From an uncultured Gammaproteobacteria bacterium (lineage in GTDB: Bacteria; Patescibacteriota; Patescibacteriia; Magasanikbacterales; JBBTQS01): a stretch of 64,000 nt of DNA. Location: contig CAZVIA010000005.1 in assembly GCA_964627525.1 (NCBI GenBank), positions 6,078 through 70,077 on the forward strand, given 5' to 3'. The notes beneath the pieces are model-generated. The model did no database searches, was not told the DNA's origin, and worked only from the letters and a program-made list of their open reading frames with translations. Positions within the stretch are counted from its first letter, which is position 1. Every line of letters begins with the position of its first letter. This document shows positions 40,597 through 64,000 of the stretch, piece after piece. Position numbers and translations under genes: made by a program.

Positions 40597-40602
40597 GTTG
40601 TT

Positions 40603-41397
40603 TTAGTTAGTAGGCACTTTTAATAACTTACCAGCACCTTTTGGATTATAACCTGCATTTATTTCACTACCATCTTCATATGTATCACCATCTGTATCTG
40701 GATTTAGAGGATCAGTTCCCCAAATCTCCAACTCTTCTTTATCATTTAAACCATCACCATCTGTATCAGGATTATTCCAATCTGTTCCATATTGAATTTC
40801 AACATCATCAGTTATGCCATCAAAATCTGAATCTAGCAAAGCAGAAGGTTCTGGCTCTGGGATAACAATTGTTTCGTCTACTTCTGGAATAATTGTATTG
40901 TCTTTTGGTTCTGGCTCTACAATAGGTGCATCTTCAATTATTAAAGAATCAGTATCATTAATATCTTCTTGTTCCTCTTCCTCATCTTCAATATCTTCTA
41001 TATTTGCTTCAGGAGGAACAATAGTTTCAACAACATCCACATCATCACCAGACATCAAAGAATTAAAAACCCAATATCCACCAGCAATCACTAAAACAGC
41101 AACTACAACTACCAAACCAATCATAAAAATTTTACTTTGTGTCATTGGTGCTTTTAACTCATAAATACTAACACCTTCTCCAGGCATTCCAGTATCTTTT
41201 GGTGTATCTGCTGTAACTGGTTTTAATTTTCCAGTTTCAACAGCTGATGGACCATAATCAACAGATTTATATTTTACTTCTTCTGGAGCTGGCACACCTG
41301 CCGGATCTGGCGCACCTTCTGTTGTTGGTGGCTGATTTGGATCTGGCTGTTGCGTTGGCTGTGGTGACTGCCCTGGTTGTTGTGGATCATCAAACAT
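40603..41397 (-). CDS. Membrane protein with bacterial TSP3 repeats (DSDFDGITDD...NPDTDGDGLNDKEE...NPDTDGDTYEDGSE)
   Basis: Pro/Gln-rich N-terminus, one TM, acidic linker, TSP3_bac-type repeats. Confidence 0.5.
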   Translation of the reverse strand: MFDDPQQPGQSPQPTQQPDPNQPPTTEGAPDPAGVPAPEEVKYKSVDYGPSAVETGKLKPVTADTPKDTGMPGEGVSIYELKAPMTQSKIFMIGLVVVVAVLVIAGGYWVFNSLMSGDDVDVVETIVPPEANIEDIEDEEEEQEDINDTDSLIIEDAPIVEPEPKDNTIIPEVDETIVIPEPEPSALLDSDFDGITDDVEIQYGTDWNNPDTDGDGLNDKEELEIWGTDPLNPDTDGDTYEDGSEINAGYNPKGAGKLLKVPTN

Positions 41398-41423
41398 ATT
41401 TTTATAAAAAACTTTTTGTAAAA

Positions 41424-47400: not shown

Positions 47401-50400
47401 CAATTAGACTCTTTTGCAACTCCCATGACATTCCAAGCCAAAGGATTGTAAACCCTAATCTTTTTACCTTCTTCATCTAAAATTTGCACCCCTTCTTCAT
47501 CAACCAAATACTCACCTTTAGGATCCATGATTAAACTAGTATTTTCTTGCAAACCATCTGCTCCATCAACTGTAAATTCACTTGGTGAAACAACTAGTCC
47601 ACCTAACTTACAATCTGTACCATCCTCATGAGTTTTAAATTTAAAACAATATGCACCACCTGCTAATTCTGCAGGAGTTCCTTCACAAGTACCATCGGGA
47701 ACCATACTCATTCCGTTTTCCAAACCAGTGATAGTATCTTTTAACACACCCATGTACCAAGTATTTGGAGCAAAATTTTGAGTTATAAAATTAGCCAAAT
47801 AACTTTGGTAAGCACCCCCATTACCAATATACATTTGGTAAACAAAATCAACAGGATTATCATTAAACACACCACAAACCTCCTCACCTTTTTCCTCATC
47901 TCCTTCACACTTATACAACAGCATTGAAGAATTCACTCCTTGCCCTAATTTTAAAGTGGTTTGATCAATAGGAATTGAAAACTTTACACCAACTGGCACA
48001 CTCTTACAAACAGAAGTACCACCTGGATGATCTTCCCAAGGAGATGGTGAAGGTAAAGCACTACCAGTACACTCTTCAATCACAGTCGGTGGAAAATTAT
48101 TTGGATTTGGAGATGACTTTCCAGTAAAAAATGAATAAGTATAACTTGCCACTGGAATATTAAACGAACCACATTTCAAAGCATCACCAGAATCAGTATC
48201 TGTTTTTGGAATACAAGCACCATCACCACAACATTGTTCATCTTCTGTACATGCTTTTTTATCTTCATTACAATTTTTTATTGTGAAAAACTTTTCATTA
48301 CTTGTAAGCGCACTAGCATTTTTAATTTTAACTGGACCAGAAGTTGCACCCATAGGAACAGTTGTATAAATCACATCCTCATACCAATCATTTGCATCTA
48401 CACTTGCTTCTAAATCACCAAAAGACACCTTACCTTTTTCTGTTCCAAAATTTTTACCATGCAAAGTAACTTTTAATTTTTCTGGACCATTATCTGGAGC
48501 TAATGCACACAAACCAGGTTTTGGCACACCATCAATAATCTCAAACTTAATACTATTACTATTATTATTATTTGGATCATTATCTGAATCATTTCTAGAA
48601 ACCAATAAATGATAATTTCCAGACGCAGCTTGTGGCACTTTAACTATAATAGATGCATCAGACCAAGTACCTAACTTGCTACACATTTCTGGAAATTCAA
48701 AATCACCTAACACCACCAAATCTGTTGGTACTAAATCAGGTGTTAAACTTATAAACTTCACTAGATTTTTATATTTCCCAAAATTCTTTCCTGTTATTGT
48801 AATATATTGACCTACAGGACCTCGCTCATCACTTAAAGAAATAATCGATGGAGCTGGTTTTGCACCTTCACCCAAAACCTCAAAAGGAACTGGATTAGAT
48901 TTTTTACCATTAACCTCTGCTTCAACTAAATAATTTCCAACACTCATGTTTGGCACATTAACACCAACCTTATTTATAGCAAGTGTTTTCATTATTGCAG
49001 TTTGTCCACCAATTCTAATATACTGTTTTGCAGCGTCAATACTTAAATTTTTTCCAAAAACCTGAACCAAAGAATCTGGTTTATCAGATGGGGGAGAAAC
49101 CGAACACAAACCCGGAGCTGTAGAATCCCCTTCTTTAACTTGAAAAACTTCTGGCAAAAAATTACCACGATCATCATCTGTCCTATCTTCGCCAAATTGA
49201 TTTTTAACTTCAATTGGATATTTTTTGTCTAACACTAAATTCTGTGGCACCTCAACAATAATCATATTATCTGTCCAACTACTATTTCCAGCACATTGTG
49301 CTTTTGATGCTGTAAACTTCTTTATATTTTTTCCATCTTCATCAATAAAACTCACTGTCCCCTGCTCACCAAAATATTTTCCAAAAATCGTAACCCAATT
49401 TGGCGCACCACCACCACGCGGTGAAACCTCTGTAATTGTTGGTAGCTCAACACATTTTTTTACTTCAGTATTAGTAGTGTCTTTTGTTTTATCCCAACTT
49501 AAATCAGCACCATACAACACAAAACTTTCACCACGCTCACACTCATCACAACCAATATGCAATCTCAATTGCTCAGCAGGTTTTTCAAAAGTTTTTGTAA
49601 TTGAATATTTTACCCACTGATTTGTAACCTCAATTTTTTTAGACTCTGCTTCATCATAAGTACCCCGATCCAGCAAATTAGAAAAAACAACTGACACTTC
49701 TCGTGGCGCTGACCTACTTAGAATTTTCCGCAACCACAATGTAAATGTAAAAGTATTTCCTTGAGTTTTTTGTGAAAAAACTTTCTGCAAAATATTATTT
49801 TGAGATTCCAAAACTTCAACAGCTGCACCTGTTAGATCCCCAGAAGGACTTTTTAATTTATTTTCTTTTACCACAAAACCACTACCAACTTCCCACTTTG
49901 AAAATTCACTTGAATTATCTAATAATTTTTGCGGTAATTCAGCAGGCGTTGAACACACACCACTTGCACAATCACTATTTTTATCACACCCAGAATTTTT
50001 ACATTTTCCACAATCACCTCCATCAGGACTACAATCAATACCTATCTCATCTGTATCTGCAGTTTTTATACCATCAAAACAATGTTCTGGTGCAAGCGAT
50101 AATTTTATTTCATCTGATTCTGTTTTATGTCCATCAAAATCATAAGCAATTGCCTTAACAGCAATTTCAGAATCATTACTAAACTGTCCTGTATCAAAAG
50201 AAATACTAACCGTTGTTGGTAAACCAATAGGATAATCAAGTTTCTTAAAACCAACTTTTTCATTTTCTACAAAAAACTCAACCAAACCAACACCAACGTC
50301 ATCATCAACCTTTGCACCTATAGTTACATTACTATTTTTTGGAATCATTGCTCCTTCATCTGGAGAAGTTATCTCAACACTTGGAGCTTTCAAGTCTAAC

Positions 50401-51239
50401 TTATCCCCAGTTGTAAATGTCACACTACAAGTACTACCAAGTCCACATTTTAATTTTTTACCATCTTTTGATAACACTCCATTTTTTCCATCTTTTACAT
50501 CCACAACATATTGTGTGTTTCTATCAAGACAACCTGTTGCTTCAGCTGTACCACAGTCTTTTGCAGACTTCATTGCCACCATACTGTCATCTATATCATA
50601 ATCAACATCAATTGCTTTACTAGATCCTGTTTTACGCAAAATTATATTTTTTTCAACACTTTCAGAATCAACATCCATTGAAAAATTAATTTTTACGCTT
50701 ACATTATAAATAGGAACATTACCACTTGGTACAATACTTTGAACTGTAAAATTCTTTATTGAACCACCACCGCCAGTCCCACCTGTTCCTCCTCCACCTC
50801 CACCACTACTATCTGAATCACTTGAACTAAATTGAGTACCAGTTGCATCACCTAGTGAGCTTAAAACAAATTGCGTAATTGAAAATGACAAAATAATTAT
50901 CATCAATCCAATCAAACCATTTTTCAAAATCTTTTTAGCTAACAAAATCTTATCTTCATTTCCACCAGCAGTCATCCAAATAAATCCACCATACAAAACA
51001 ATCAAGATCGCCAAAATTCCCAAAAAACCAAGAACCACACGAACTATTTTTGCGATTGTAACTTTTATGTCCTGATCTCCTAATTGAGATGCTTCTTGAA
51101 AATCACCTAAACTTGTATCAATTTGTGCTAAAACTTCTCCAGCTCCAACAAATGCAAAAACAGCAAACACCAAAGCAAACACTATTAAAAAGTTTTTGTA
51201 TTTAGACTTTGATTTAAATTTTGAGAAAAATGATCTCAT
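41424..51239 (-). CDS. Giant (3271 aa) surface protein: VirB2/TrbC-like N-terminal double-TM hairpin, Gly-rich linker, Ig/IPT-TIG-like domains, about ten myxococcal-type Cys-rich repeats (CGDG...E.CDDGN...DGCS..C)
   Basis: N-terminus homologous to the 51242..53053 product; repeats such as [27 protein letters not shown] and [29 protein letters not shown]; IPT-like [11 protein letters not shown]. Confidence 0.75.
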   Translation of the reverse strand: [3271 protein letters not shown]

Positions 51240-51241
51240 AA

Positions 51242-53053
51242 TTATTTAGCAGTTGGATTACACGCACTTGATGAAGGATTTCCATTACAACACCAAGGTT
51301 TTGATTCACTTGTGCCACTACACCCCATATCATCTTGCGCTGGATAAAAACAATTATTAGCCATATCCATTATTGAAGACGGCAAATGTGGAATGTATTC
51401 TCCATCTTCATAAAATTCAGTTCCATGATGGATAATAAATTGACCTCTTTCATCATAAAAATCTGCGTGCGGCTCACCTTCTGGAATTACCTCCTCATCA
51501 AATCGCTTAGAAAAACCAACTGCAATTTCTTCAGGATTATTTAATAGCATTGCATCTGAAAAACTACTGTATTGCATTGGTTTTGAAAAAGTAATTACAG
51601 GATCAAGCTCAACGTCTATTTTCGTTGCATTTACTTTTGGCAAAATATTTATAATTTTCGGAGCACTAATATCTTTGTTTCCTGAAGTTGAAAAACTATA
51701 CAAAAAATTATCTTGATCAGGACCACTACTTGTATCATCTTCATTTCCATCCAAAGAATTTCCGACCATATCAACCACACCATTATAACCAGCTGTATTT
51801 GGATAACTTAATAAATTAATAGCTGCAGCTGGCTCACCTGTTGCTGGATTGTTTAATGTTGCTGCTTTTGCCAAAACTTGAATTGCAGCTGGTCCAGGCA
51901 AACAATAAACTTCATTACCACAGGAATTTTTTCCACAAGAATTTTCAGGATCATCTGCTATATATTCAATTGTTTTATAACCATTTGTAATTCTAAAAGT
52001 TCCTTTCACTGCTGTTAAAGCATTTTCTTTTGACTCCCCAACTATTATATTATTAAAACCTTCTGTAACTTTACCAACAACTGCGAGTGGCAAAATAGGT
52101 TCATTAAAAGTAATTTGAATTCCAATGTTGCGCGGAAGTTCTTTTGTTGTGCCAATTTTAGGAAATGTAGAAACAACATGAGGTGGCTCTGAATCCACTT
52201 GAGTACTCACTTCAAACACCCAATCATAATCAGGATTTGCCAAACTAAAAATTGTTTTTCCGTTTGTGTTTAAAATTTCATTTGTTAGTCGAACTGTATA
52301 TTGAACATCTTCTGTGGATAAACCAAGATAATTTGCTGGTTTGAAAATAAAAGTTTTATTATCTGGAGCAACAGTCACTGTGACATTTTTAATTGTTTTT
52401 TCATCTAAAGTTTTTTGTGCATCAGGTCCGCTAATAGGATAAATCTGAATTGCGTTTGTATTTATTGTTTCGCCATCAATAATTGAGTTTTTATCAATCG
52501 GCATTTTAAAAGTAATTACAATCGGAGTGTTTCTTGGAATATTTTTATCCCCACGATCTGGATAATGTGATTCTAAAACAGTTCCAAGCGCACCAGAAGT
52601 TTTAAATGAAATACCTGAACCACCTGTTCCACCAGACCCACTACCAAAAAGATTTGCACCTGTTGCATCATTTAAAGATTTCAAAACAAAATAAGTAATG
52701 CTATATGCAGACATAATTATTACCAAACCAATTCCAGCATTAATTAAAATCTTTTTAGCTTTATCAATCTGATCAGGATTTCCAGCTGCAGTCATCCAAA
52801 TAAAACCACCGTACAAAACCAAACAAATCGCAATAATACCCAAGAAGCCTAAGACCACTTGAACAATATCACCAATTATGGTTTTTATATCTTTATCACC
52901 TAAACTTGTTTGCTGTTGAAATTCATCTAATTCAGTATTGATTTGCGCTGATACAATTTGTGTTTTTAAAACAAAAAAACCAGCGGCCAATATAACACAA
53001 AAAATTGCCACTAAAAACTTTTTCTTGTAACTCAATGGATGTGCCCTATCCAT
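51242..53053 (-). CDS. Surface protein (603 aa) with the same pilin-like N-terminal module plus Ig-like domains; paralog of the N-terminus of the giant protein
   Basis: [27 protein letters not shown] is ~60% identical to residues 60-90 of the neighbouring product. Confidence 0.7.
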   Translation of the reverse strand: [603 protein letters not shown]

Positions 53054-53068
53054 TTAGGACAAAATTTA

Positions 53069-53509
53069 TTATCCGATCATTTCTGTCAACAATTCGCGTA
53101 CATAATTGCCGTCTGCACGACCAGAAACTTGCTTCATCACAAGCCCCATGCACTTATTCACAGAAGGTTCCTCGGACTGTTCAATTACTGAACTTATTAT
53201 ACCACGAATTTCTTGTTCAGGCATCTCCTGTGGAAGAAAATCTTTTAACACTTCTAATTCTAATTTTGTTTTTGAAATTAAGTCCTCACGACCAGCGCTT
53301 TCAAACTCTTGTAAAGCATCTTTTAATTGCTTCACTTGTGTTTTCAAAACTTTTTGCATCTCATCTTCAGATATTTCTTTTTCAGTTTTGCGCAACTCAA
53401 TTTCACGATTTTTTATTGCGGTTTTCACTAAACGCAAAATAGACAAATCAGGTTCTTTTTTGTCCCGCATTGCCTGTAGAATTTTTTCTTCAATTGTTTG
53501 TAACAACAT
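53069..53509 (-). CDS. GatB/YqeY domain protein
   Basis: ~146 aa, helical GatB/YqeY pattern; precedes rpsU as in many bacteria. Confidence 0.75.
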   Translation of the reverse strand: MLLQTIEEKILQAMRDKKEPDLSILRLVKTAIKNREIELRKTEKEISEDEMQKVLKTQVKQLKDALQEFESAGREDLISKTKLELEVLKDFLPQEMPEQEIRGIISSVIEQSEEPSVNKCMGLVMKQVSGRADGNYVRELLTEMIG

Positions 53510-53514
53510 AAAAT

Positions 53515-53769
53515 TTATCGTCTCTTCTTTTTTCCTCTTCCTCTAAAATCATCTTCAGTTGCTTTTCCGGACTTAATTAAATAAGTACGCTTTGCTGCCA
53601 TTTTATTTCTAACTAAAGCTGAATTTTTTTGAAGATTTTTACTTTTGGTACGCTTAAAATATTGCGTTTTTTTAGCTTGCAATAATTTTCCACTCATTGT
53701 CATTGATTTACGAAAGCGTCGCATCAATGCTTCAAAACTTTCGCCTTTGTTTTTTGTTACTTCAATCAT
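53515..53769 (-). CDS. rpsU: 30S ribosomal protein S21
   Basis: Small basic protein; ALMRRFRKS motif. Confidence 0.8.
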   Translation of the reverse strand: MIEVTKNKGESFEALMRRFRKSMTMSGKLLQAKKTQYFKRTKSKNLQKNSALVRNKMAAKRTYLIKSGKATEDDFRGRGKKKRR

Positions 53770-53803
53770 GTAAACACCTACCTTTCTCTATTTTATTCTT
53801 ATA

Positions 53804-55276
53804 TTATTTCTTTGTTTTTTTCGTAGACTTTCTGGTCTTTTTAACCTTTTTCTTAAGTTCTGGAATAATTTTGTCAAAATCCACGACTTCCTGATTTCCA
53901 GACTCCATATCGCGAATTATCACAGTATTATCCATAACTTCCTTTTGCCCTACCAGCACAACATATGGTATCTCTTTTTCATTAGCTATGTCAAGCTGTG
54001 TTTTTAGTGCATCTTTAGCAAAATTTGCATCTAAAACATATCCTGCATCACGCAAATTATTATATAAAGCCAATGCACGACGTTTTCCTTGCTTTCCTAA
54101 TTGTGCAACAAACAAATCTGGCTTAGGCGCAGACCAAGGTTTAACCCCCCGATCCTTCATTGCCAAAACTATACGATCAATTCCAGGAGCAACACCACAT
54201 GCCGCTGTTTCTTTTCCACCCAATTGTTCCATTAACAAATCATAACGACCCCCACCACACAAAGATGATTGAGATAATTCACTATCATCATCTACTGCCA
54301 AAAACTCAAAAACGGTTTTTGTATAATAATCTAAACCACGCACCAAAAAAGTATCCACAAAATACGGAATCTCCAATTCATCTAAGTATTCCAAAACTTC
54401 TGTGAAATGTTTTTTAGAATCATCTGAAAGCCAATCAATAATTTGCGGAGCTTCCTCACGAACTTCTGCACATTGTTCTTCTTTACAATCTAACAAACGC
54501 AAAGGATTTCGCACCAAACGTTTTTGACAATTATCACACAATTCTTTTTTACGCTGACGATACCATTGAACTAATTCCATTTTATATCGTGCACGATCAT
54601 CTGGAAGTCCGATGCTATTAATATTTACACGAGTTTCAATCCCCAACTCTTTAAAAAACTGATAAGTCAACAAAATTATTTGAGCATCAGTTGCTGGAGA
54701 ATCATCTCCAATTATTTCAAAATCTGCCTGATAAAACTGTCTGTAACGACCAGCTTGTGGACGATCATAACGAAACATCGGCCCCCATAACCATAATTTT
54801 TGTGGTTGCGGACGATTAAACATTCCATTATTTATAAATGCACGACACAAAGACGCTGTTGCTTCTGGACGCAAAGCCAATTTTTTCTCATCACGATCCA
54901 GCAAAGTGTACATTTCTTTTTCAACAATATCAGTAACTTTTCCAACCGCACGCACAAACAATTCCTCTGGCTCAACCAAAGGAGTTTCAATTCTCATAAA
55001 ACCAAAATCATCTGCAATTTTTTGCGCAGTTTCATAGCACTTTCGCCAATAAGGTTCGTCTTCTGGTAAAATATCTCGCATCCCACGAACAGTTTGAGGA
55101 GTTCTAATTTTTTTCTTTTTCGGCTCTTGATCCTCTTGTGGCTCTGGCTTTTTTACTTCAGTTTTCTTCTCTGGCTTTTTATCCTCTGGTTTTTTATCGA
55201 CTTTTTTGTCTAATTTTTTATCAGACTTTTTGTCTTCAGGTTTTTTGTCGACTTTTTTCGTAATTTTCTTAGTCAT
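53804..55276 (-). CDS. hisS: Histidyl-tRNA synthetase with Lys-rich low-complexity N-terminal extension
   Basis: GMRDILPED (motif 1), FRYDRPQAGRYRQFYQ (motif 2); the N-terminal ~55 aa are KKxDKK repeats. Confidence 0.85.
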   Translation of the reverse strand: MTKKITKKVDKKPEDKKSDKKLDKKVDKKPEDKKPEKKTEVKKPEPQEDQEPKKKKIRTPQTVRGMRDILPEDEPYWRKCYETAQKIADDFGFMRIETPLVEPEELFVRAVGKVTDIVEKEMYTLLDRDEKKLALRPEATASLCRAFINNGMFNRPQPQKLWLWGPMFRYDRPQAGRYRQFYQADFEIIGDDSPATDAQIILLTYQFFKELGIETRVNINSIGLPDDRARYKMELVQWYRQRKKELCDNCQKRLVRNPLRLLDCKEEQCAEVREEAPQIIDWLSDDSKKHFTEVLEYLDELEIPYFVDTFLVRGLDYYTKTVFEFLAVDDDSELSQSSLCGGGRYDLLMEQLGGKETAACGVAPGIDRIVLAMKDRGVKPWSAPKPDLFVAQLGKQGKRRALALYNNLRDAGYVLDANFAKDALKTQLDIANEKEIPYVVLVGQKEVMDNTVIIRDMESGNQEVVDFDKIIPELKKKVKKTRKSTKKTKK

Positions 55277-55280
55277 ATTT

Positions 55281-55892
55281 TTACAAATTATATTCTGGCT
55301 GATCCATCAACCCAAATTCTTCAATTGGCCAACCTCGTAACCATGCTCGACCAATAATATCATCACGCATAACAGCTCCCATTTTGCGCGAATCCAAACT
55401 TACGTTTCTATTGTCTCCTAAAACAAAATACTCATCCTCATTTAAAGTCACTGTAAGTTCACCAGTTGTATAAACTGCATCCTCTAAATAATCTTCTTCT
55501 GCAACCACAACTCCGTTTTCATTTTCAGAATTATAAACCACAACTTTTCCTGACTGAACTTTTATTTTTTCACCCGGCAAACCAATAATTCTTTTTAAGA
55601 AAAATTCTCGTTTGTCATTTTCTCTCCTAAAAACTATTACTTCACCACGTTTTGGCTCTGAAAACCTATAAGTGATCTCATCAATGATTAAATACTGCTT
55701 TTCATAATAATTCGGCTCCATGCTTGCACCTTTTACATAAAAAGGTTTAAACAAAAAATATCGCACCATTCCAATTGTTATAATAGTAAGTAACGCGATT
55801 TTTGCGAACTCTATAAAAAAAACTTTTGTTGCATATCCGCGAGATGATTTGTCTTGCTCGCTTTGATCATATAGACCTGGATCTTCTAACAT
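55281..55892 (-). CDS. lepB: Signal peptidase I
   Basis: GASMEPNY (Ser box), VLGDNRNVSLDSR (box E). Confidence 0.85.
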   Translation of the reverse strand: MLEDPGLYDQSEQDKSSRGYATKVFFIEFAKIALLTIITIGMVRYFLFKPFYVKGASMEPNYYEKQYLIIDEITYRFSEPKRGEVIVFRRENDKREFFLKRIIGLPGEKIKVQSGKVVVYNSENENGVVVAEEDYLEDAVYTTGELTVTLNEDEYFVLGDNRNVSLDSRKMGAVMRDDIIGRAWLRGWPIEEFGLMDQPEYNL

Positions 55893-56172
55893 ATTTTGCT
55901 TATTTTGCTAATAAAATGCACTTCTAGGGGCTAGTATAGCATGGATTTTAGGGTTGTGCAAGATTAGGGTAAAAAAGGAAAAACACCTTGAGGACAGCCT
56001 GCTTAGAACAGATGTGCTTTATCTCAAAGTGTTTTTAGGTTAGGTTTGGGCTGTGAGAACGTCGAAGATAATCCAACGAATGGTTATCTCACAACCCAAG
56101 TTATTGATGTGCCTTGAACACGCGTGCTGTATTTTATGGAACCAGTATCTCAAGGCGTAAAATGTTGTGTGT

Positions 56173-56562
56173 TTAAATCGGGAAGTCAGGACTGTTCGCA
56201 GGCTCGCAACGCGCAAAAGCACGAAGCGCCCGAGCAAACTCCATTTTCCTTTGAAGTCGTTCGAAAATGTCTGGCATTGTCAAACGCACAGGCATTGTGC
56301 TGCGACAGTCTTGTTGAAACTGCCAGTTGTGGTGACACAGATTTCTCTGCTGTTCCAGACCATTCCTGCCATACTCGTGAGAAAACGCCCAATGACGCAA
56401 CTGGTTGTGCCAACCATACCAGTATTTACCACCAAGACGGCAGTAGACCAGCTTTGCCAAGGTCAGCAAAAACACAGTCCAATGCTTGTCTACAGCATAG
56501 AACTGGTTTCCAAATGCAACCACAAACCTTCGTTTGGATTGCTTTTGAACCAAAGACGACAT
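56173..56562 (-). CDS. Hypothetical protein (129 aa), GC ~50%, strong RBS GGGAGGGAGAG; possibly the first cassette
   Basis: RBS 5 nt before ATG; downstream long hairpin 56046-56115. Confidence 0.4.
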   Translation of the reverse strand: MSSLVQKQSKRRFVVAFGNQFYAVDKHWTVFLLTLAKLVYCRLGGKYWYGWHNQLRHWAFSHEYGRNGLEQQRNLCHHNWQFQQDCRSTMPVRLTMPDIFERLQRKMEFARALRAFARCEPANSPDFPI

Positions 56563-56757
56563 CTCTCCCTCCCTTTTGCCAGCCCCCTGTGACTAGCTAA
56601 GTTATAATAGCAAGTTTGGGGAGTTTGTCAAGTTTGAGTTGCTCTGGCGCACCCCAATACCAAGCATTGGAGTTTGACGTTTCGCTTAGTCAAGCACCCC
56701 CTTGTGGTTAAGTTTAAAATTATAAATTGTATAATGTGGTAGGAAAATATGTATGTC

Positions 56758-56889
56758 GCCTAACGTTCCAGAATATGCGATGTTTGCCCGTGGTAAAATT
56801 TGCGACCGGCGGGAGCTTACCACGGGCAAATATGGGTGCAGCGAGGAGGAGGTACGACGACGAACGGAACCGCATATTCTGTGTTGTAC
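56758..56889. repeat. attC-like element A: GCCTAAC-gtt-CCAGAATATGCG ... CGCATATTCTG-t-GTTGTAC; inner 14-bp stem TTTGCCCGTGGTAA/TTACCACGGGCAAA; AATATGGGTG motif
   Basis: Read directly; 11-bp outer inverted repeat. Confidence 0.7.
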
Positions 56890-56928
56890 GATGTAATGAA
56901 AAATTTATCCATTAAAAATTATTTGGGG

Positions 56929-57747
56929 CTACTTTTTTGGGTAAGGAATTGGGAAAACTCCTTTTAACTTCATGACGGCAGGTGAAGCAGTTTTTGCATT
57001 CACTTTTGCCATAAAGTTGTACTTTTTAAGTGATGTAAGTGCGCTCGGACTCATTTCAGAGTGATACTTGTTGATTAGCTCAGCTGTTGCACTGCCAACG
57101 AAATAGCAAAGTACATGGTTTGCGGCTTCAAGTGTGCGCTCCAGAATATCTGTACGGTAGTGCATAGATGTTTGATCTGACAATATGCAAGACAAGTCTT
57201 TTTCTTTGCTTTGCACTATTTGTTCCAGGACTTCTTCATCTACAAAGTTATGTGCTTCGTCGAGTCCGAGCGAACGATTTTCGCCGCCAACGATTTGCAA
57301 AAACTGCTTCACAAGGTATAAACCGAGTTCTCTTGCTACACCTGTACCCAAACTACGATAATCCAACTTGCAGAGGAGAAACTTTTGGCCGTCCTTTTTC
57401 ATTTCCTCAAAGTGGATTTCCTTCTGGAATTTTGCAATGTTTTCATCAAGTGTTCCGGTCACTGCTTCAAATATCGCAACTTTGTTAGCTTTGTCTGCTG
57501 GAATGTAAGATTGAACATCTTTGATAAGATCCCCGTAAGGATCAATCAACATGCCACCTCGACTGTTGTGGATGTCTGAAATTATTATGTCTTCAAGAGT
57601 GACGGATTTGCCTTGGCCGGAACGTCCAAATAAATGCAAAATTCCAGGACGTTCTTCTGGAGAAAGGCCAAAAGTTTCTCCGTTTTCTTGTGCACCGATT
57701 GGTGTTAACCCTTCCTTGATGATGTTTTCCATAGTGTTTGTGCTCAT
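56929..57747 (-). CDS. P-loop ATPase (HerA/AAA_10-like; Walker A GRSGQGKS, Walker B LGLDEAH)
   Basis: Motifs read directly; 272 aa, possibly a truncated or standalone domain. Confidence 0.55.
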   Translation of the reverse strand: MSTNTMENIIKEGLTPIGAQENGETFGLSPEERPGILHLFGRSGQGKSVTLEDIIISDIHNSRGGMLIDPYGDLIKDVQSYIPADKANKVAIFEAVTGTLDENIAKFQKEIHFEEMKKDGQKFLLCKLDYRSLGTGVARELGLYLVKQFLQIVGGENRSLGLDEAHNFVDEEVLEQIVQSKEKDLSCILSDQTSMHYRTDILERTLEAANHVLCYFVGSATAELINKYHSEMSPSALTSLKKYNFMAKVNAKTASPAVMKLKGVFPIPYPKK

Positions 57748-57821
57748 ATGAATTAGTTAGTTAATTAGTAAATTGTGAAAAAAGTAGCCCCAAATACATT
57801 ATAAAAATTTTTCATTATTTC

Positions 57822-57922
57822 GTACAACGTTAGGTATAAGCGAAGTTTTGCAGAGCTGAAAAGCGGAGCAAAATTTGCGTGAGCCCCGAGCCGAGGGGCG
57901 AACCGCTTATACCTTGTTAAAC
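57822..57922. repeat. attC-like element B: GTACAAC-gtt-AGGTATAAGCG ... CGCTTATACCT-t-GTTAAAC
   Basis: 11-bp perfect outer inverted repeat; inner TTTTGC...GCAAAA hairpin. Confidence 0.7.
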
Positions 57923-58026
57923 GACCCGAGGTCTGCCTTCCTTATTATAATTATTTAAGAAAAGGCAGGCCGAGAGCGCAGCGGGGCGCGACTGGAAGGA
58001 GCGAGTTTATAATTTTTTGTAAATTT

Positions 58027-58677
58027 TTATATGGTCTCATCATTATTTCTTCCAAGGTTACATTTACTGCAAAGTGTTCTTAGGTTTTTTACTTCATTGC
58101 TTCCGTCCTTTGAGAAGGGTTTTATGTGGTCAACATGCAAGATCACACCTCTCTGGGTGGCTGGACTTCTACCACACATTACACAAGAAAAATTATCTCG
58201 TTTTAATATCTGCAACCTCTTTTTTTCATTTATCGTTCTTGATTTTGCAGTACTTTTTTGGTTGAGTAATTTTTCGAATTGTATATCACCCTTCTTGTAT
58301 TTTATAAACGCACTGCAAGCTTTCATCCAGCCACCCCAACGGTTAATATATGGCTTTGCAGTAAACTCTGAGAGAGGAGACTTCATTTCACTATAAAATG
58401 GCTGCCTACCAAGAGAACGCCAAATTTTTTCTAAGTTATTAAAAAGAACTTTTTCAGTAATTTTATGTTCTCTTATTATATCTAGTCCGGCTTTTTGAAC
58501 AGCTTTATTCCATGAACCAAATCTATTAATAAATACTTTGGTTGAAAAAGTGCCATGCTTAACATAGTCGCGAAAACTAACATTATTCTTTTTAAGTTTC
58601 TTGGCGACTTTTCGTAGGTCTTTTAGTAATTCTTCATTACTAGAAAATTTGGCGTTCGTCCGTAGTTTAAAATCCAT
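58027..58677 (-). CDS. HNH endonuclease (C-terminal CVMCG...HVDHIKP...N...CSKCN); N-terminal tandem RFGSWNKA / RWGGWMKA repeats
   Basis: His-Me finger spacing; cassette context. Confidence 0.65.
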   Translation of the reverse strand: MDFKLRTNAKFSSNEELLKDLRKVAKKLKKNNVSFRDYVKHGTFSTKVFINRFGSWNKAVQKAGLDIIREHKITEKVLFNNLEKIWRSLGRQPFYSEMKSPLSEFTAKPYINRWGGWMKACSAFIKYKKGDIQFEKLLNQKSTAKSRTINEKKRLQILKRDNFSCVMCGRSPATQRGVILHVDHIKPFSKDGSNEVKNLRTLCSKCNLGRNNDETI

Positions 58678-58704
58678 AAAAATTTACAAAAAATTATAAA
58701 TTTC

Positions 58705-58791
58705 ATTTAACGTCGGAATTATGAGAAGTCGCCGAAGGCGATTTGGGTGGAGAAGTCTGCAAGACTTCGTAACCTCATAATCCTTGTTATA
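58705..58791. repeat. attC-like element G: ATTTAAC-gtc-GGAATTATGAG ... CCTCATAATCC-t-GTTATAT; ATTTGGGTG motif
   Basis: Read directly; inner hairpins TCGCC/GGCGA and GAAGTCT/AGACTTC. Confidence 0.65.
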
Positions 58792-58861
58792 TTCCCCGAA
58801 GGGCTGAAATTTAGTGCAACGTCCCGAAGGGAAATTTCAGAGTCGTCGTGTTTATATTTTT

Positions 58862-59605
58862 TTATTGAGGGTTTCCACCGTATCTAGAAAGAACATATAT
58901 AGAAACATCTCCTAGATGAAGTCCTTGTTTGGATTCAACCTTATGTTCTTGAGAAATTTTTAGTTTATATTTTTCTACATGGTTTGCAGGGTTATTTTCC
59001 TTCCCAGCAAAATGAAAATAAGGCATGATTATGATTCCATCTTGTTTTAAATACTGAGGAACTTCTCTGAAAAATCTTTGTAGGAGTTCAGTGCCTCCAA
59101 GCATACTTCTTCTCAACATTTCATCTTGATTTGGGTCACCTTCAAATTTTTCAGGTTCTTCAGAAAAAAATGGGTGATTGAATAAAACAATATCATAGAT
59201 TCTGTTTTTGGGAAGACCATTAAATAAATCGCTTTGATAAACTTCAGCATTCGCAAGTTTATGTTGCGTGATATTTTTTTGGGTGTTGGCAACTGCTTTA
59301 GGATTAATATCTGCAAACGTAATTGATTTAGCTCCATATTTTGACATTACTATTCCTTGTGTTCCTGGACCACACCCAATATCAACAACATCTTTTTCAG
59401 AATATAATTCTTGATGTTTATATAAAAATCTTGCAAGATGACTTGCAGTGGTAATAATGTCTGACCCAAAAACTCCTTTTTCAATCAACAAGTCAAGAGA
59501 GAGATGTGTCTTTTCATCTAATACAATATTTCTGATTCCTGATTCACGCTGATGAACCTGCAACTGCTTTTTTACAAGATCATATTGTTCTTTAGTGAAT
59601 GCCAT
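58862..59605 (-). CDS. Class I SAM-dependent methyltransferase (MTS-type; VVDIGCGPG, NHPF motif IV)
   Basis: Motif I GxGxG and (N/D)PPF-like NHPFF read directly; target (DNA, rRNA or protein) cannot be assigned. Confidence 0.6.
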   Translation of the reverse strand: MAFTKEQYDLVKKQLQVHQRESGIRNIVLDEKTHLSLDLLIEKGVFGSDIITTASHLARFLYKHQELYSEKDVVDIGCGPGTQGIVMSKYGAKSITFADINPKAVANTQKNITQHKLANAEVYQSDLFNGLPKNRIYDIVLFNHPFFSEEPEKFEGDPNQDEMLRRSMLGGTELLQRFFREVPQYLKQDGIIIMPYFHFAGKENNPANHVEKYKLKISQEHKVESKQGLHLGDVSIYVLSRYGGNPQ

Positions 59606-59679
59606 AATAAAAGAAAATATAAACTGATTTATAAATGTTAGGCGGAAACCCTCAAATTATAATTCTACACGACGATTGA

Positions 59680-59803
59680 ATATAACGTCTAGGTATAAGC
59701 GATGTTGCACGGGTGTATAATACGCTGAAAGCGTACACCCGTGCAATATGGGTGAAGTGAAAGAGTGAAAGGACTGAACGAAACCGCTTATACCTTGTTA
59801 AGT
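59680..59803. repeat. attC-like element C: AATATAAC-gtct-AGGTATAAGCG ... CGCTTATACCT-t-GTTAAGT; inner 11-bp stem GCACGGGTGTA/TACACCCGTGC; AATATGGGTG motif
   Basis: Read directly. Confidence 0.7.
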
Positions 59804-59814
59804 GATGTAAATTT

Positions 59815-60333
59815 TTATTTTGTATTGTTTCCGATTATCAAAGTGATGTTGCCATCTTTCTCTTCTCTTATACTTTGGCCCTTAATTGGACCTGAAAAAA
59901 CTCCTTGAGCTATGCTGGTGAAATCATATCCATTTTGCTCTAGATAGTCTTTGATCTCATAACCGAATTGGATGGCCTCAGCGTCTCCCATGACCGTTGT
60001 TATTCCTATTTTTTTATCTCTGAAATTTTCAAGTTGTTGTTTTAATCCTTCGGTAAGATGACGCTGAGGTGTTCCTATGTTGACTTGCCCAGCCGTAATG
60101 CCGCCTTGTTGATTGTTACTAGTCACATTAAATATATTGTCTGTCATATTTGTGCTTGTTAGGTAATAAACTGCTACTCCACCGACAATGACAACTGTCA
60201 GTGGAATAAAGAAATATTTGTTAATTGGTTTGCTCCAAAATTTGGGGTTTTTCGGCTGGGCAATTTTATTGATTTCGCCAGCGGTTGTTCCACCTTTTTG
60301 GTTGTTACTTGTTACGTTGATTATTTTTTTCAT
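59815..60333 (-). CDS. Hypothetical membrane-anchored protein with two INVTSNNQ(K/Q)GG(T/I)TAG repeats
   Basis: Internal duplication and one TM; cassette gene. Confidence 0.4.
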   Translation of the reverse strand: MKKIINVTSNNQKGGTTAGEINKIAQPKNPKFWSKPINKYFFIPLTVVIVGGVAVYYLTSTNMTDNIFNVTSNNQQGGITAGQVNIGTPQRHLTEGLKQQLENFRDKKIGITTVMGDAEAIQFGYEIKDYLEQNGYDFTSIAQGVFSGPIKGQSIREEKDGNITLIIGNNTK

Positions 60334-60346
60334 AAAAATTTATTTC

Positions 60347-60440
60347 ACTTAACGTTTCAGTATATGCGATGTTTTGCGAAGTATGAGCAAAATATGGGAG
60401 AGCGAAGTGCAACGAGCGAACCGCATATACTGTGTTAGGC
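60347..60440. repeat. attC-like element D: ACTTAAC-gttt-CAGTATATGCG ... CGCATATACTG-t-GTTAGGC; AAATATGGGAG motif
   Basis: Both ends match RYYYAAC / GTTRRRY exactly; 11-bp perfect outer stem. Confidence 0.75.
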
Positions 60441-60613
60441 GAGCCGAACGGAGCGATAGCGGAGTGAGAGTGCAACGTGCCTTGCGTATTTTTGAAAAAT
60501 TTATCCATATTATTCCGTTTTTGGTGGGCTTTTTATATTTGTATTTGATTTTTTTGTTTTGAAAAATGGAAGAGGGGCTGGGGGTGAATTCCATTTTTCA
60601 AAACTCCTTATTA

Positions 60614-63127
60614 TTAAATCTTAATGTTTAATTTTTTTAGTACCATTTCAGAAATGGAACTTAGCATGTTTTTTGATTTATTAATTAATGCTTTTGCTTC
60701 TTCTCTTTGATTTATTGCTTCTTCTGCAATTTTTCTTTGATCAGCTATATTTGGTTTAACTATTTTTATCTTAAAAAAGTCTTTAAGTCGTAAATTTTTA
60801 ATACCAGTTGTCTGATTCTGTATATAGTCCATATAACCTGACTTATAAAGTGTTTGTAAATAGACAAAGACATATTCTGGTAGCAATGTGTTTTCTTTTA
60901 TTTTCATTTTTTGCAAAAAGTTACTAAAGACAACGGGTTTATCAAATGGTAAATCCTCAATTATTGCCACTCTCCCAACAGGTTGAATTGGACTTCCTCC
61001 TGATTTTTCTACTAAAATTTCTCCTTTTTTTAATGCAAGTTTTTCTGCTTTATTTTTTTTAATATAACGCTGGGCTACATCTGAAAAATCAAGATTGAAG
61101 TCGTTATGAAAATTTGTATTTCTAACTACATAGCAAAGTTCATAATCTGAATTTGGTTCAAAATTAATTGGATCCTCGCCCCATTCTCCCGCAACAGAGC
61201 TTTCGACTATGTCTTCAAGAATGATATTTGATTGGCTGTTATTCTCGATGACATTCTGTAAGTTTTTAAAAAATGGTCTATAAAAGTAAGGATCAAAACG
61301 ATCTTGTAGTTCATTATTATCAATAAAAAATGTTTCAGGCTCTTTTTTCTTAGTTACATTTTTTTTATTTAAGTATGTATCGAGAATATCTATCAAGTCA
61401 TTTTTTGGATCACGTTTTCCAGTTGCTTCATAGCCAATATGATCAGCTATTGCCATAAAAACTTTGTATTTTTTTTCTTTTTCTTGCTTATCCTTTTTTC
61501 TTAAAAATAAGAGGGATGACTTTACTGCTGCTCCATAATGAACGAATGTAAATTGTGGTAGACTAATTATTGCTTCTATTTGGCAATGATCCATTATAAA
61601 ATCACGCACATATTGAAATGTTGAGTTCATGAGTATTCCGTCAGGCAAAACAATTGCCATTCTTCCAGTGCCGTATTTTAGAAAATCAATGCAACGCTCA
61701 ATAAATAAAATTTCGGTTTTTTGATTGTCTCGGCATTTTTTCCCATTTTGTCCAAAATTAAATTTTTCAATATAAGGGTGTTCACTTCTTTTTACATTCG
61801 CCCCAAATGGTGGATTTGTTACAATTACATCAAATTTATTTATTTCAAAGCCACGATTTTTACCATTCATTTTTTCAATATCTTCTAACGCATCAAAGCC
61901 AATTACATTTGTGTGTCCGTCATCATGAATAATCATGTTCATTTTAGCAACGCGTGCAATTGAATCATTTATTTCAATGCCAAAAAGATTGTTTTGAGCA
62001 AAATCATGCCAAAAGCGATATTTTTCTGTTTCATCATCCTTGTAGTATTCCTCAGCTTGACTTCGTACTTCATCAAGAGCGTGCAAAAGAAAACCACCAG
62101 AACCACAGGCAGGATCAAGCACGAGATCATCATTTTTAATCTCCATCATTTTAACTGCGAAGCTAACGATTTCACGCGGAGTAAAAAATTGCCCGCTTTT
62201 ACCTTTGAAAAAATCTTCCATAAATTGCTCAAAAGCTACGCCTTTTGTATCAAGATCAGTTTTACTAAGGGAAACGCTTTGCAAATGTCCAACTACTGTA
62301 TACAGTTCTTCTGGGTCAATTTTTAGACTTTCCTTAAAAACTTCTGGATCTTTTTGTTTTGCCTCTTGATAAATAGCGTCTAATCTTTTGTATACACTTT
62401 CAGCCTTTTCATGTGTTTTGATTTGAAAATCGTAGAATTCACCATTTTTTCTTCCACGTTTTTCATCACGAATTTTTACAAAAATGATTTTACAAAGCTC
62501 ATCAAAAGCTACGGTTGGATTTCTTTTTCCGCCAGCCCATAAAGTGTTTTGAGATTTTTCAAGAGTTCGTTTAAGTTCTAATTTATCGAGTGTCTTTAAG
62601 TCCCAATCGGGATCGCCTTTTTTAAAACGATATTCTTCAATTTTTCCATAAGAAATTGGAATATCGGTAATAGTGGCTTTTTCTGGTTCTTTATCATTCC
62701 ATTCCGCCGTTTCCATTGCTCTGCGAGTATTGCCAGCAACGCAAATTGCAAACGGAGCATGAAGTACGCGAGCGTTGCCGATTGCTTGTTTGGTAGCTTG
62801 TTCAAATTCTGCATCCGATACTCCGTCTTTTTTGCACTCAACGACGATGTAGGGTTTCTTTTTTGCGTCGTCTTCATAAATAACAATATCAGCAAAAAAA
62901 CGAGGCACGCGAGCAGGCATTTCCGTTTCGAGTTCTAAACGCTTTGCAGGATAGTGATATTTTTCAAGCAAATCAAAATAGTATTCAGCACGGACTTTTT
63001 CCTCTGGATCATTCAAATTTTCTTTGTGTCCTGACGGCAGGTATTCTATTTTTGCACCATCATTAAAAACACGAAAATATCCTTTTTTCTCGCCGTCATT
63101 TAATATTTTTTCCAGAGTATTTATCAT
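60614..63127 (-). CDS. Single-chain Type IIG/IIL-like restriction-modification enzyme: N-terminal PD-(D/E)xK nuclease, gamma-class N6-adenine MTase (DPACGSGGFL, NPPFG), C-terminal TRD-like region
   Basis: ADIVIYEDD...VVECKK nuclease motif; FTPREIVSFAVKMMEIKNDDLVLDPACGSGGFLLHA and VTNPPFGANV methylase motifs. Confidence 0.7.
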   Translation of the reverse strand: MINTLEKILNDGEKKGYFRVFNDGAKIEYLPSGHKENLNDPEEKVRAEYYFDLLEKYHYPAKRLELETEMPARVPRFFADIVIYEDDAKKKPYIVVECKKDGVSDAEFEQATKQAIGNARVLHAPFAICVAGNTRRAMETAEWNDKEPEKATITDIPISYGKIEEYRFKKGDPDWDLKTLDKLELKRTLEKSQNTLWAGGKRNPTVAFDELCKIIFVKIRDEKRGRKNGEFYDFQIKTHEKAESVYKRLDAIYQEAKQKDPEVFKESLKIDPEELYTVVGHLQSVSLSKTDLDTKGVAFEQFMEDFFKGKSGQFFTPREIVSFAVKMMEIKNDDLVLDPACGSGGFLLHALDEVRSQAEEYYKDDETEKYRFWHDFAQNNLFGIEINDSIARVAKMNMIIHDDGHTNVIGFDALEDIEKMNGKNRGFEINKFDVIVTNPPFGANVKRSEHPYIEKFNFGQNGKKCRDNQKTEILFIERCIDFLKYGTGRMAIVLPDGILMNSTFQYVRDFIMDHCQIEAIISLPQFTFVHYGAAVKSSLLFLRKKDKQEKEKKYKVFMAIADHIGYEATGKRDPKNDLIDILDTYLNKKNVTKKKEPETFFIDNNELQDRFDPYFYRPFFKNLQNVIENNSQSNIILEDIVESSVAGEWGEDPINFEPNSDYELCYVVRNTNFHNDFNLDFSDVAQRYIKKNKAEKLALKKGEILVEKSGGSPIQPVGRVAIIEDLPFDKPVVFSNFLQKMKIKENTLLPEYVFVYLQTLYKSGYMDYIQNQTTGIKNLRLKDFFKIKIVKPNIADQRKIAEEAINQREEAKALINKSKNMLSSISEMVLKKLNIKI

Positions 63128-63328
63128 AATTTTAAACCTTAAAAGTAAAAGTTATTTGTATTATATAAGTATTTCTCTTGTTTATTCAATTTATAAATAA
63201 ATCGTTTTCGGAGCGATAGCGGAGAAAACACCTTTTACCCCCCCCTCTTTAAAAATTAAAAAAATCAAATTCCTTATTTCTTAAAGCCCACCAAAAACAT
63301 TTTAAAAACAAATTTTTCAAAAATATGT

Positions 63329-63471
63329 CGTCTAACGTTCCCGTGTATGAGAAGTTTCTCCGACTTCCTTATTCTCTATGATAGAGGAGGCGAAATTTGG
63401 GTGAAAGAAAAAGTGCAACCGCTAAAAATTATTAACGCACTTTTTCTTGAACCTCATACACGCTGTTATGT
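63329..63471. repeat. attC-like element E: GTCTAAC-gtt-CCCGTGTATGAG ... CCTCATACACGC-t-GTTATGT; AAATTTGGGTG motif
   Basis: Outer arms 10/12 complementary; longer variable centre. Confidence 0.6.
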
Positions 63472-63482
63472 GATGTTTAATT

Positions 63483-63932
63483 TTAAGCTTCTAGGTCTAG
63501 TAATTTTTTGCACTCATCTCGCATAAACTCGGGATATATTTCTAACTTTGGTGTCCCACGTTTAATAATTTCAGAAGCCGGAATAATAATTCTTTGCGGA
63601 TGAGATTCGGTTTGATCATTCATGCCAGCTCCATACACGATGCCTTTCATCTTTGCCCATATAGCGGCCGAGGTACACATTGGACATGGTTCATAAGTAG
63701 TATACAAATAGCAGTCGAACAATTTATTCCCAAGCTTTTTGGCCGCGGCTCGGATAGTATTGATTTCAGCGTGTGCTGTAGGATCAATATCGCGTCTAAC
63801 CGTAGTAAAGGCTTCTGAAATTATTTCATCATCCTTAACAATAATTGCCGCAACTGCATGTCCGCCTTCTTTGTGCTTTTCAATGGCAAGCTCGATAGCC
63901 TTATTCATTATGTCTTTGTTAGGATGATGCAT
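63483..63932 (-). CDS. CMP/dCMP-type zinc deaminase (TadA/dCMP/guanine deaminase family)
   Basis: HAEINTIRAA ... YEPCPMCTSAA (H-A-E ... P-C-x-x-C) zinc motif. Confidence 0.75.
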   Translation of the reverse strand: MHHPNKDIMNKAIELAIEKHKEGGHAVAAIIVKDDEIISEAFTTVRRDIDPTAHAEINTIRAAAKKLGNKLFDCYLYTTYEPCPMCTSAAIWAKMKGIVYGAGMNDQTESHPQRIIIPASEIIKRGTPKLEIYPEFMRDECKKLLDLEA

Positions 63933-63955
63933 AAAAAAGCTTAAAATTAAATTTC

Positions 63956-64000
63956 ACATAACGTTTCAGTATATGCGATGTTTTGCGGAACGTAGTGGAG
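63956..64000. repeat. attC-like element F (truncated at window end): ACATAAC-gttt-CAGTATATGCGATGTTTTGCG, nearly identical to the 5' half of element D
   Basis: A 40-nt stretch (aaatttcacNtaacgtttcagtatatgcgatgttttgcg) matches 60341-60380 at all but one position. Confidence 0.6.

Follow-up and report, generated by a model that had tools for sequence, protein, structure and literature searches.

A probable non-canonical integron-like gene-capture array on a Patescibacteria (CPR) chromosome

Introduction

Integrons, whether of class 1 or sedentary, such as the Vibrio cholerae repeat (VCR) array, combine a divergently transcribed tyrosine recombinase and an adjoining attI site with co-oriented cassettes of one open reading frame (ORF) each. 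Every ORF is followed by an attC site, an imperfect hairpin bounded by RYYYAAC and GTTRRRY boxes that folds on the bottom strand; cassette boundaries fall at G|TT, and the cargo is diverse. Here we analysed a stretch of 64,000 nucleotides (the window) from the chromosome of a Candidate Phyla Radiation (CPR; Patescibacteria) bacterium, and we describe at positions 56758-64000 what is likely the distal part of an integron-like gene-capture array of a non-canonical type. The integron features just listed all recur, the recombinase and attI being read from related loci, whose recombinase-array geometry proved identical, when checked by sequence, to that of the class 1 integron of plasmid R100. Unlike in integrons, the recombinase lacks the I2 or 'ALER' insertion and stays under the TIGR02249 cut-off, and the attC-like site is strongly sequence-conserved across phyla, with a three-way shape and a conserved ATWTGGGWG...GAAC branch. 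The site further differs by a perfect 11-12 bp stem and by a length asymmetry on the R'-L' arm instead of extrahelical L'' bases, and the complementarity of cassette ends reaches 22 to about 170 nt past the 7-nt box.

Other systems resemble parts of this locus. Val et al. reportedly described in 2005 that CTX-phi uses an I2-less Xer-type recombinase on a forked single-stranded hairpin of ~150 nt that mimics the duplex core site. CTX-phi and the integrative mobile elements exploiting Xer (IMEX) are thus like the present system in joining an I2-less Xer-type recombinase to a folded single-stranded site, which is predicted here. The cargo here, however, is not a phage genome but a series of single-gene cassettes, poor in promoters, that stand in long co-oriented arrays, and the recombinase appears to travel with the platform. 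In the pdif modules of Acinetobacter plasmids, small gene modules lie in series between plain 28-bp Xer-type duplex sites of alternating orientation, whereas the elements here are folded, 88-142 nt long and all in one orientation. A single-stranded IMEX ('ss-IMEX') scenario has been discussed for the origin of integrons (PMC7790495).

Archaeal integrons have been reported as arrays or clusters of attC sites lacking an integrase (CALINs) in DPANN and uncultured lineages, with attC shared between domains, attI semi-conserved across phyla, and integrases that carry the IntI-specific additional domain (PMC9668308). They are like the present system in arrays and lineages and unlike it in their I2-bearing IntI. 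The supplementary text of that paper contains neither the motifs nor the accessions of the attC family described here, and the paper does not mention CPR (PMC9668308). CPR bacteria encode Xer-like 'Cand' tyrosine recombinases that are presumed to substitute for Xer, for which no link to attC-like cassettes was described (PMC8138268); these and the XerA-type enzymes (NF040815) have the same size, domain content and host range as the recombinase here. Our search for integron or attC together with CPR names, which covered literature outside subscription journals, found no description of such arrays. In a 2026 permafrost study, 97% of contigs with 'integron-type' recombinases had no attC detected by IntegronFinder, for which novel attC sites were suggested as one possible cause (PMC13323075).

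Results

Structured elements and paired cassette ends

The + strand of 56758-64000 carries seven co-oriented structured elements of 88-142 nt, the seventh truncated at the window end. E1 (56758-56889, GCCTAAC...GTTGTAC) is the most distal in the window and was recognised as a half-site hidden Markov model (HMM) pair and by its DNA fold (-26.5 kcal/mol, z -3.9). It is followed on the same strand by E2 (57822-57922, GTACAAC...GTTAAAC), whose left box complements the right box of E1, and by E3 (58705-58792, ATTTAAC...GTTATAT), E4 (59680-59803, ATATAAC...GTTAAGT; fold z -9.4), E5 (60347-60440, ACTTAAC...GTTAGGC) and E6 (63330-63471, GTCTAAC...GTTATGT), each supported by half-site HMM and fold. E7 (63956-64000, + strand) is partial here; a 12-kb contig of the same strain (L001; related contigs and loci carry L numbers) holds it entire, with GTTAGGC as its final box, and stops 23 nt past that box.

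All elements share one layout. The 5' half consists of RYYYAAC, GTY plus 0-2 nt, an arm of 11-12 nt, and A[AT]GT, which opens a variable hairpin. The 3' half begins with AT[AT]T, which closes the hairpin, and continues with G[GC]G[AT]G and a stretch that is variable or forms a second hairpin; (G)AAC, the partner arm, 1-2 nt and GTTRRRY complete it. The RYYYAAC and GTTRRRY boundary boxes are present in 7/7 window elements and likewise in the family consensus (230 members). A degenerate pattern for the right half matched six times in the 64 kb window, always within the array, against a chance expectation of 0.09, and a half-site HMM scan gave seven hits with none outside the array. As single-stranded DNA, the six complete elements were more stable than shuffled sequence (z -2.1 to -9.4). 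The structured repeats claimed in a preliminary description of this DNA are therefore real and, as it had held, keep to gene boundaries within a single array instead of being scattered like a miniature inverted-repeat transposable element (MITE). Its count of eight cassettes and seven gaps has to be revised: there are seven minus-strand ORFs and six gaps with an element plus a tail, and six of the ORFs are each enclosed by two elements, giving six fully delimited cassettes.

The boxes were complementary across genes. In the window, the right box of one element and the left box of the next form the pairs GTTGTAC/GTACAAC, GTTATAT/ATATAAC, GTTAAGT/ACTTAAC and GTTATGT/ACATAAC, and two further pairs have one mismatch each. 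The complementarity continues for 22-27 nt, up to the start and stop codons, and for ~170 nt around the restriction-modification (RM) gene. Across 80 adjacent pairs from the wider element family, the right box of element n and the left box of element n+1 were 76-93% complementary at six variable positions, while the two boxes within one element were only 37-68% complementary. Two conserved mismatches, GATGT opposite ATTTC, are kept in the cross-gene pairing. The cassette ends thus pair with each other and not within the element, as expected if both derive from one attC cut at G|TT. This is exactly the pattern predicted for integron cassettes: single co-oriented ORFs, each with both ends from one attC and the crossover at G|TT.

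Covariation and strand preference across the element family

One pattern built from five window copies was run on metagenome contigs and species-representative genomes, and it matched at least 120 of the former and at least 119 of the latter. More than 240 contigs, the majority of them CPR, were fetched in all, and the related loci total about 1.4 Mb. By record title, ~72 of the 119 genomes among the matches listed are CPR (many classes) and seven are DPANN archaea, the remaining labels among those matches being Omnitrophota, Gammaproteobacteria, Bdellovibrionales, Bacteroidota, Zixibacteria and others; these phylum labels come from metagenome-assembled genomes (MAGs) and are possibly wrong for short contigs. 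Several of the CPR matches sit on long contigs, 100 kb to 1.36 Mb in length.

Half-site HMMs detected about 530 half-sites in the fetched loci, with mixed strands in only one of the 144 loci that have at least two elements. In the inner 8 bp of the stem, 96.9% of cells were paired among 286 unique elements, compared with 76% (maximum 78%) in 500 shuffles, which bears out the outer-stem covariation first noted from the window copies. Four of the eight positions examined (1, 2, 6 and 7) showed three or four Watson-Crick pair types each. The motifs A[AT]GT and AT[AT]T also covary (ATGT/ATAT 140, AAGT/ATTT 128, other combinations 6). The motif that had been described as conserved and single-stranded is therefore conserved, but its ATWT part is paired. 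The + strand folded better than its complement in 282/296 elements (mean -2.97 kcal/mol; Wilcoxon p 5e-49), and only the + strand keeps conserved G.T wobbles, which on the complement would be A.C mismatches. Many + strand hairpin tips read C-GAA-G, a motif also found on the bottom strand of attC_aadA1. The elements are thus compensatory imperfect hairpins with a preference for folding on the bottom strand, antisense to the genes.

The arrays are organised as in the window. The median spacer between elements was 731 bp (n=167), and in 150 of 165 spacers the longest ORF was antisense to the element and filled 82% of the spacer. A set of 140 cassette proteins matched 140 different Pfam families with none dominant, and only 15 homologous pairs were found among 158 cassette ORFs.

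We compared the elements with attC_aadA1 of R100, which in the same orientation reads ATCTAAC-GCTTGA-GTTAAGC-loop-GCTTGAAC-GAATT-GTTAGAC. The arms of attC_aadA1 are equal, at 13 nt each, with one extra base (G) in L''. In the elements here, a 6-nt spacer lies on the arm beside the cleaved box, as in attI, and the other arm has 1-3 nt; the conserved GGGWG...GAAC branch of 20-70 nt leaves the 3' arm, and the R'-L' arm is 2-3 nt longer. Box order, crossover position and strand bias are shared with integrons, and the marks of asymmetry differ, which might suit an enzyme without I2. The strand asymmetry expected from the preliminary description was accordingly recovered, whereas the canonical extrahelical bases were not.

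Some right boxes are followed on their 3' side by an extra block of 50-85 nt, seen in L001 after E7 and in the window at 57923-58005, 58793-58850 and 60441-60490. The block consists of GAGGGTG or GCCCCGA, a hairpin and (A/G)GYGCARCG, and it resembles the GGGWG-plus-hairpin part of attC. It accompanies the same attC subtype in L009, L037, L043, L052 and L063, and in L013 and L022.

A short tyrosine recombinase beside an attI-like junction

We searched the related loci with IntI1, using a query that was checked to be 100% identical to annotated intI1. The results revealed 20 loci with an ORF of about 270-300 aa (E 1e-34 to 1e-43), and a profile search that also allowed genetic code 25 raised the number of recombinase loci to 34. 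In the Gracilibacteria loci L133, L152, L174 and L189, the recombinase ORFs are fragmented under code 11 and full-length (277-296 aa) under code 25, and standard-code scans of these lineages will therefore under-call the integrase. In 30/34 cases the gene lies on the side that matches 'beyond 64000' in the window, on the strand opposite to the cassette ORFs. Of the 54 loci whose proximal flank spans at least 3 kb, 22 have a recombinase there, compared with 1 of 66 for the distal flank. The placing of integrase and attI beyond position 64000 in the preliminary description thus fits the related loci, while the contig ends before the window's own copies would be reached.

In 16 of the 20 loci, an attI-like junction (...ATTTC-RYYYAAC | TCGTTTnTATACGAAnTGTTT...) lies 70-164 nt upstream of the recombinase start, and the conserved array-end junction reads ...RYYYAAC|TCGTTTnTATACGAA. 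At this junction the cassette sequence stops directly behind AAC and gives way to a conserved, dif-like site of 11-6-11 form, with the layout ATTTC-RYYYAAC | TCGTTT | nTATACGAAgT, the right arm of which resembles the left arm of attC. In the related loci, the attI-like site beside the divergent recombinase thus appears to serve as the insertion point. We also started from the protein: three close homologues were picked by sequence and contig size only, and five loci were fetched. Elements in + orientation were found on the predicted side in 5/5 loci, and the attI-like junction was present in 4/4 loci whose upstream sequence was read.

The adjacent recombinases were then compared with known families. 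All 20 full-length proteins that were aligned lack the ~30-residue IntI insertion, the IntI1 stretch that contains ALER, so the IntI-specific insertion that had been anticipated is missing. They scored 220-233 bits, in two stretches, against the 'integron integrase' model TIGR02249 (cut-off 265), 221-229 bits against the XerA-type 'tyrosine recombinase/integron integrase' model NF040815 (cut-off 220), and about 185-193 bits against the XerC and XerD models. Their domain content is Phage_int_SAM_4 plus Phage_integrase. The best solved relative is VchIntIA (2a3v), with an alignment that skips residues 184-244, and XerA comes next. The RHRY catalytic residues aligned with IntI1 are kept, and the C-terminus ends in ...SPL as in IntI1 and VchIntIA. 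The I2 helix is seen as docking the extrahelical bases and as enabling single-strand attC recombination (PMC7790495).

The recombinase family comprises more than 6000 clusters at E below 1e-40; the best 120 are about 240-325 aa long, most of them exactly 270, and source annotations name the proteins XerD or generic recombinase. Recombinases 77-93% identical to each other occur under the labels Moranbacteria, Portnoybacteria, Gracilibacteria, Cloacimonetes and Pseudomonadales. The recombinase therefore appears to move horizontally with the platform and, as far as the MAG labels hold, does not follow the pattern of a vertically inherited housekeeping dimer resolvase.

Cassettes shared between arrays

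One cassette (96% protein identity) occurs in two arrays, L096 and L118, with different neighbours. The DNA homology between the two loci stops on one side exactly at ...RYYYAAC|GT and begins on the other right after the AAC of the cassette's own attC. Between the two attC copies there are four differences in the stem and one in the hairpin, and 5/5 changes are compensated on the partner arm. Relatives of window elements were found in MAGs of other phylum labels, at 94-96% identity for E5 with its flank and ~84-92% for E3 and E6.

In the complete 1.36-Mb Peribacteria genome, elements occur at two distant places, L229 (CP060226.1, 328-336 kb) and L218 (1136-1144 kb). The L229 array has six elements and one cassette duplicated at 100% amino-acid identity. 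Beside the recombinase on a 377-kb contig (L250:500-9730), the first 6.4 kb past attI hold five defence-type genes, namely a RadC/Dam-like gene, an AlwI-type restriction enzyme, an N4/N6 methylase, an OLD-like ATPase and a small ORF. The attC search detected no site between these five genes; either they form one multi-gene cassette, or divergent sites among them escaped detection.

Cassette genes and their flanks

All six cassette ORFs of the window lie on the minus strand. ORF 1 (56929-57747, 272 aa) has a weak AAA_22 or mad8-like match and inverted repeats at 56883-56938 and 57778-57828; the HerA-like ATPase proposed for this array comes down to that AAA_22 match (E 4e-4). ORF 2 (58027-58677, 216 aa) encodes an HNH endonuclease with homing-endonuclease-associated repeats, and a perfect 25-nt inverted repeat (58006-58030 / 58676-58700) touches its stop and start codons. 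ORF 3 (58862-59605, 247 aa) encodes an S-adenosylmethionine (SAM)-dependent methyltransferase flanked by the inverted repeat 58850-58879 / 59641-59670, and ORF 4 (59815-60333, 172 aa), which has no family match, is flanked by the inverted repeat 59797-59818 / 60332-60353. ORF 5 (60614-63127, 837 aa) is the RM gene, a fusion of HSDR_N, N6 methylase and specificity domains as in type IIG or type I-like RM enzymes. ORF 6 (63483-63932, 149 aa) encodes a cytidine/deoxycytidylate-type deaminase, with the inverted repeat 63465-63490 / 63937-63962. The ORFs at 60349-60594 and 60305-60508, considered as an extra gene, were rejected; they overlap E5 and have no family match.

The flanks of the RM gene are conserved. 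The 3' flank (60441-60613, minus strand) is an imperfect inverted repeat of the 5' flank (63128-63329, minus strand), which carries a promoter-like TTGAAT-18-TATAAT at 63189-63160. Together with E5, the flanks form a hairpin of about 330 nt (z -7.4). E5 with its 3' flank is 94-96% identical to elements on eight other contigs, and flanks 92-96% identical to those of the RM cassette enclose unrelated genes of 0.8-4.7 kb in MAGs with different phylum labels. RM-type flanks were found on L185, L221, L164, L205, L118, L195, L235, L119 and L250; on L221 the RM gene itself shows only 30% identity despite conserved flanks. The flanks look like a conserved non-coding 'chassis' with exchangeable cargo, which may bear on how cassettes form.

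Scanning for promoters and terminators revealed no enrichment, with only two good promoter-like sites, and no T-tracts or terminator calls inside the elements. An Rfam search of the window, at gathering cut-offs and at E up to 10, left the array unmatched and returned only a tmRNA and one tRNA elsewhere. The cassettes do lack ribosome-binding sites, as had been remarked; this is not specific to cassettes, because the core gene lepB also lacks a Shine-Dalgarno sequence.

Genomic surroundings of the array

The array had been thought to start directly after lepB, but an 866-nt stretch (55893-56757) with an uncharacterised ORF intervenes, and it is uncertain whether this stretch belongs to the array. 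It contains a minus-strand ORF of 129 aa (56173-56562) without family match, preceded by a strong promoter-like site (TTGACA-16-TATTAT with TG, 56631-56604). Gene callers favoured + strand ORFs overlapping 56173-56562, and family searches gave no support for the + strand ORFs at 56124-56600. A weak hairpin at 56054-56110 was rejected as an eighth, degenerate attC, its right box not being complementary to the left box of E1.

GC skew was ~0 in 56001-64000 compared with -0.24 to -0.38 in the core at 38001-56000, where the genes lie on the same strand, a difference that would fit recent acquisition of the array DNA. In four relatives (68-77% HisRS identity) the order lepB-hisS-S21-yqeY-pilin is conserved, and none of them has an element at the syntenic site upstream of lepB. 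Variation among relatives, in the form of this missing array and of the same cassette in different arrays, was thus found as the preliminary description would have it.

In sister lineages, a tRNA and the end of the 16S rRNA gene are found upstream of lepB, at a distance of a few kb (L244:1-900, L247:1-1900). In the window genome the array may therefore lie between the rRNA operon and lepB, and such a neighbour would be a second reason for the assembly break.

Downstream of hisS-S21-yqeY, 41424-53053 encodes proteins of 3271 aa and 603 aa with type IV secretion system (T4SS)-pilin and Big_5 domains, a pair that is syntenic in all relatives examined. GC-rich islands lie at 10001-16000 (up to 0.50) and 26001-32000 (0.41-0.44) on a background of 0.34-0.36. 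Their ORFs have no Pfam match or a repeat match only (620-aa protein at 11629-13491), and LexA is encoded inside the second island (30456-31070).

Discussion

Taken together, the analysis supports the integron-like interpretation first given to this array and does not support its membership in the canonical integron family. Several observations weigh against reading 56758-64000 as part of a gene-capture array with its own recombinase. The IntI1 search detected no tyrosine recombinase within the 64-kb window, nor was an attI seen there, and all five contigs that encode the deaminase stop within about 150 nt of E7; the contig ends inside the array, which keeps the region where a recombinase would be expected out of view. 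Only ~40% of the arrays with enough proximal flank show a recombinase. The recombinases associated with related loci lack the I2 helix of integron integrases, and the canonical extrahelical-base layout is absent, the extra 2-3 nt lying on the other arm than in attC_aadA1. The related loci, having been gathered with a window-derived pattern, are moreover a biased sample, while the search that started from the protein was independent of that pattern.

A canonical integron, with an I2-bearing IntI past the contig end or elsewhere (a CALIN) and with the short recombinases not being the acting enzymes, would account for the boxes, hairpin, bottom-strand bias, cassette organisation and G|TT boundaries, all of which are canonical. 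CALINs are common in MAGs (PMC9668308), and any integrase of this genome would lie outside the contigs that carry the locus. Against this, none of the 34 recombinases found across ~1.4 Mb of related loci combines IntI length with the insertion, the short recombinase directly adjoins the junction where cassette sequence ends at RYYYAAC|, and the sites lack the canonical extrahelical-base layout, so that we hold a canonical integron to be very unlikely. Somewhat more room, although it too is unlikely, must be given to Xer/dif-dependent modules of IMEX or pdif type, in which the recombinase is the housekeeping dimer resolvase, 'attI' is dif, and the cassettes hijack the resolvase, possibly with the dif-like left half of each element recombining as an ordinary duplex. 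The Xer-sized recombinase does pass the XerA model cut-off (221-229 bits versus 220), the 11-6-11 dif-like layout of attI recurs at the left end of each element, and CPR bacteria are reported to have their own Xer-like 'Cand' recombinases (PMC8138268). However, 77-93% identity across CPR classes and the Cloacimonetes and Pseudomonadales labels is too high for vertical housekeeping genes, and the complete Peribacteria genome has elements at two distant places (L218, L229). Covariation and strand bias point to a folded site rather than a plain 28-bp duplex, and use of the dif-like left half as a duplex would leave the covarying right arm unexplained.

The elements might also have nothing to do with recombination and be structured repeats of repetitive extragenic palindrome (REP) or MITE type, transcription terminators, or an RNA motif on cassette mRNAs; they are indeed intergenic, structured and repeated, and in the window one lies downstream of every cassette gene. 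This reading is largely refuted, and we regard it as extremely improbable: there are no copies outside the array, no Rfam match at E up to 10, and no T-tracts or terminators inside the elements. The better fold and the wobbles are antisense to the genes, and the mRNA would therefore fold worse. Cross-gene box complementarity and the association with recombinase and attI would also be unexplained.

For the integron-like array that we favour, the following mechanism may be proposed. On the gene strand, a cassette would open with G|TTRRRY-GAAAT..., contain one ORF and close with an attC-like site ending in ...AAC-G. The attC would be used as the folded, single-stranded + strand (the bottom strand as seen from the ORFs), with RYYYAAC and GTTRRRY paired, a spacer of unequal sides (3-5 nt against 1-2 nt), the 11-12 bp covarying stem stacked on the variable hairpin, and the conserved GGGWG...GAAC branch standing out from the 3' arm. 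The predicted catalyst is a tyrosine recombinase of ~270 aa, related to IntI and XerA and without the I2 helix, whose gene would be expected on the + strand of this genome just past the contig end, oriented divergently to the cassettes and beside a dif-like attI. If active, the enzyme would bind attI as duplex and attC as folded + strand, cleave after AA|C and swap one strand, an exchange placed directly behind AAC that would insert and excise cassettes; replication would then resolve the junction, and attC x attC recombination would release circular cassettes. Expression may come partly from cassette-borne promoters, such as the TTGAAT-18-TATAAT in the 5' flank of the RM gene.

The chances appear evenly balanced that the window represents a distinct, widespread integron lineage of CPR, DPANN and other uncultured phyla, whose integrase never had or has lost I2 and recognises a sequence-conserved three-way-junction attC in place of extrahelical bases. 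If so, it would either be a living relative of the long-sought Xer-to-IntI intermediate, a 'proto-integron', or have solved single-strand cassette recombination independently. The lack of natural forms that bridge Xer-type recombinases and IntI has been noted (PMC7790495), and here all the architectural hallmarks of integrons stand alongside a recombinase that resembles IntI and XerA but is I2-less. Should this enzyme be active, both the origin of integron recombination and its minimal requirements would become directly testable. The lineage may also explain why 'integron-type' metagenome recombinases mostly have no attC detectable by current tools (PMC13323075). It would further reveal a cross-phylum cassette pool common to CPR and DPANN organisms, to which the restriction-modification, HNH nuclease, methyltransferase and deaminase genes of the window would belong. 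Members of both groups have tiny genomes, and they are believed to rely on exchanging genes.

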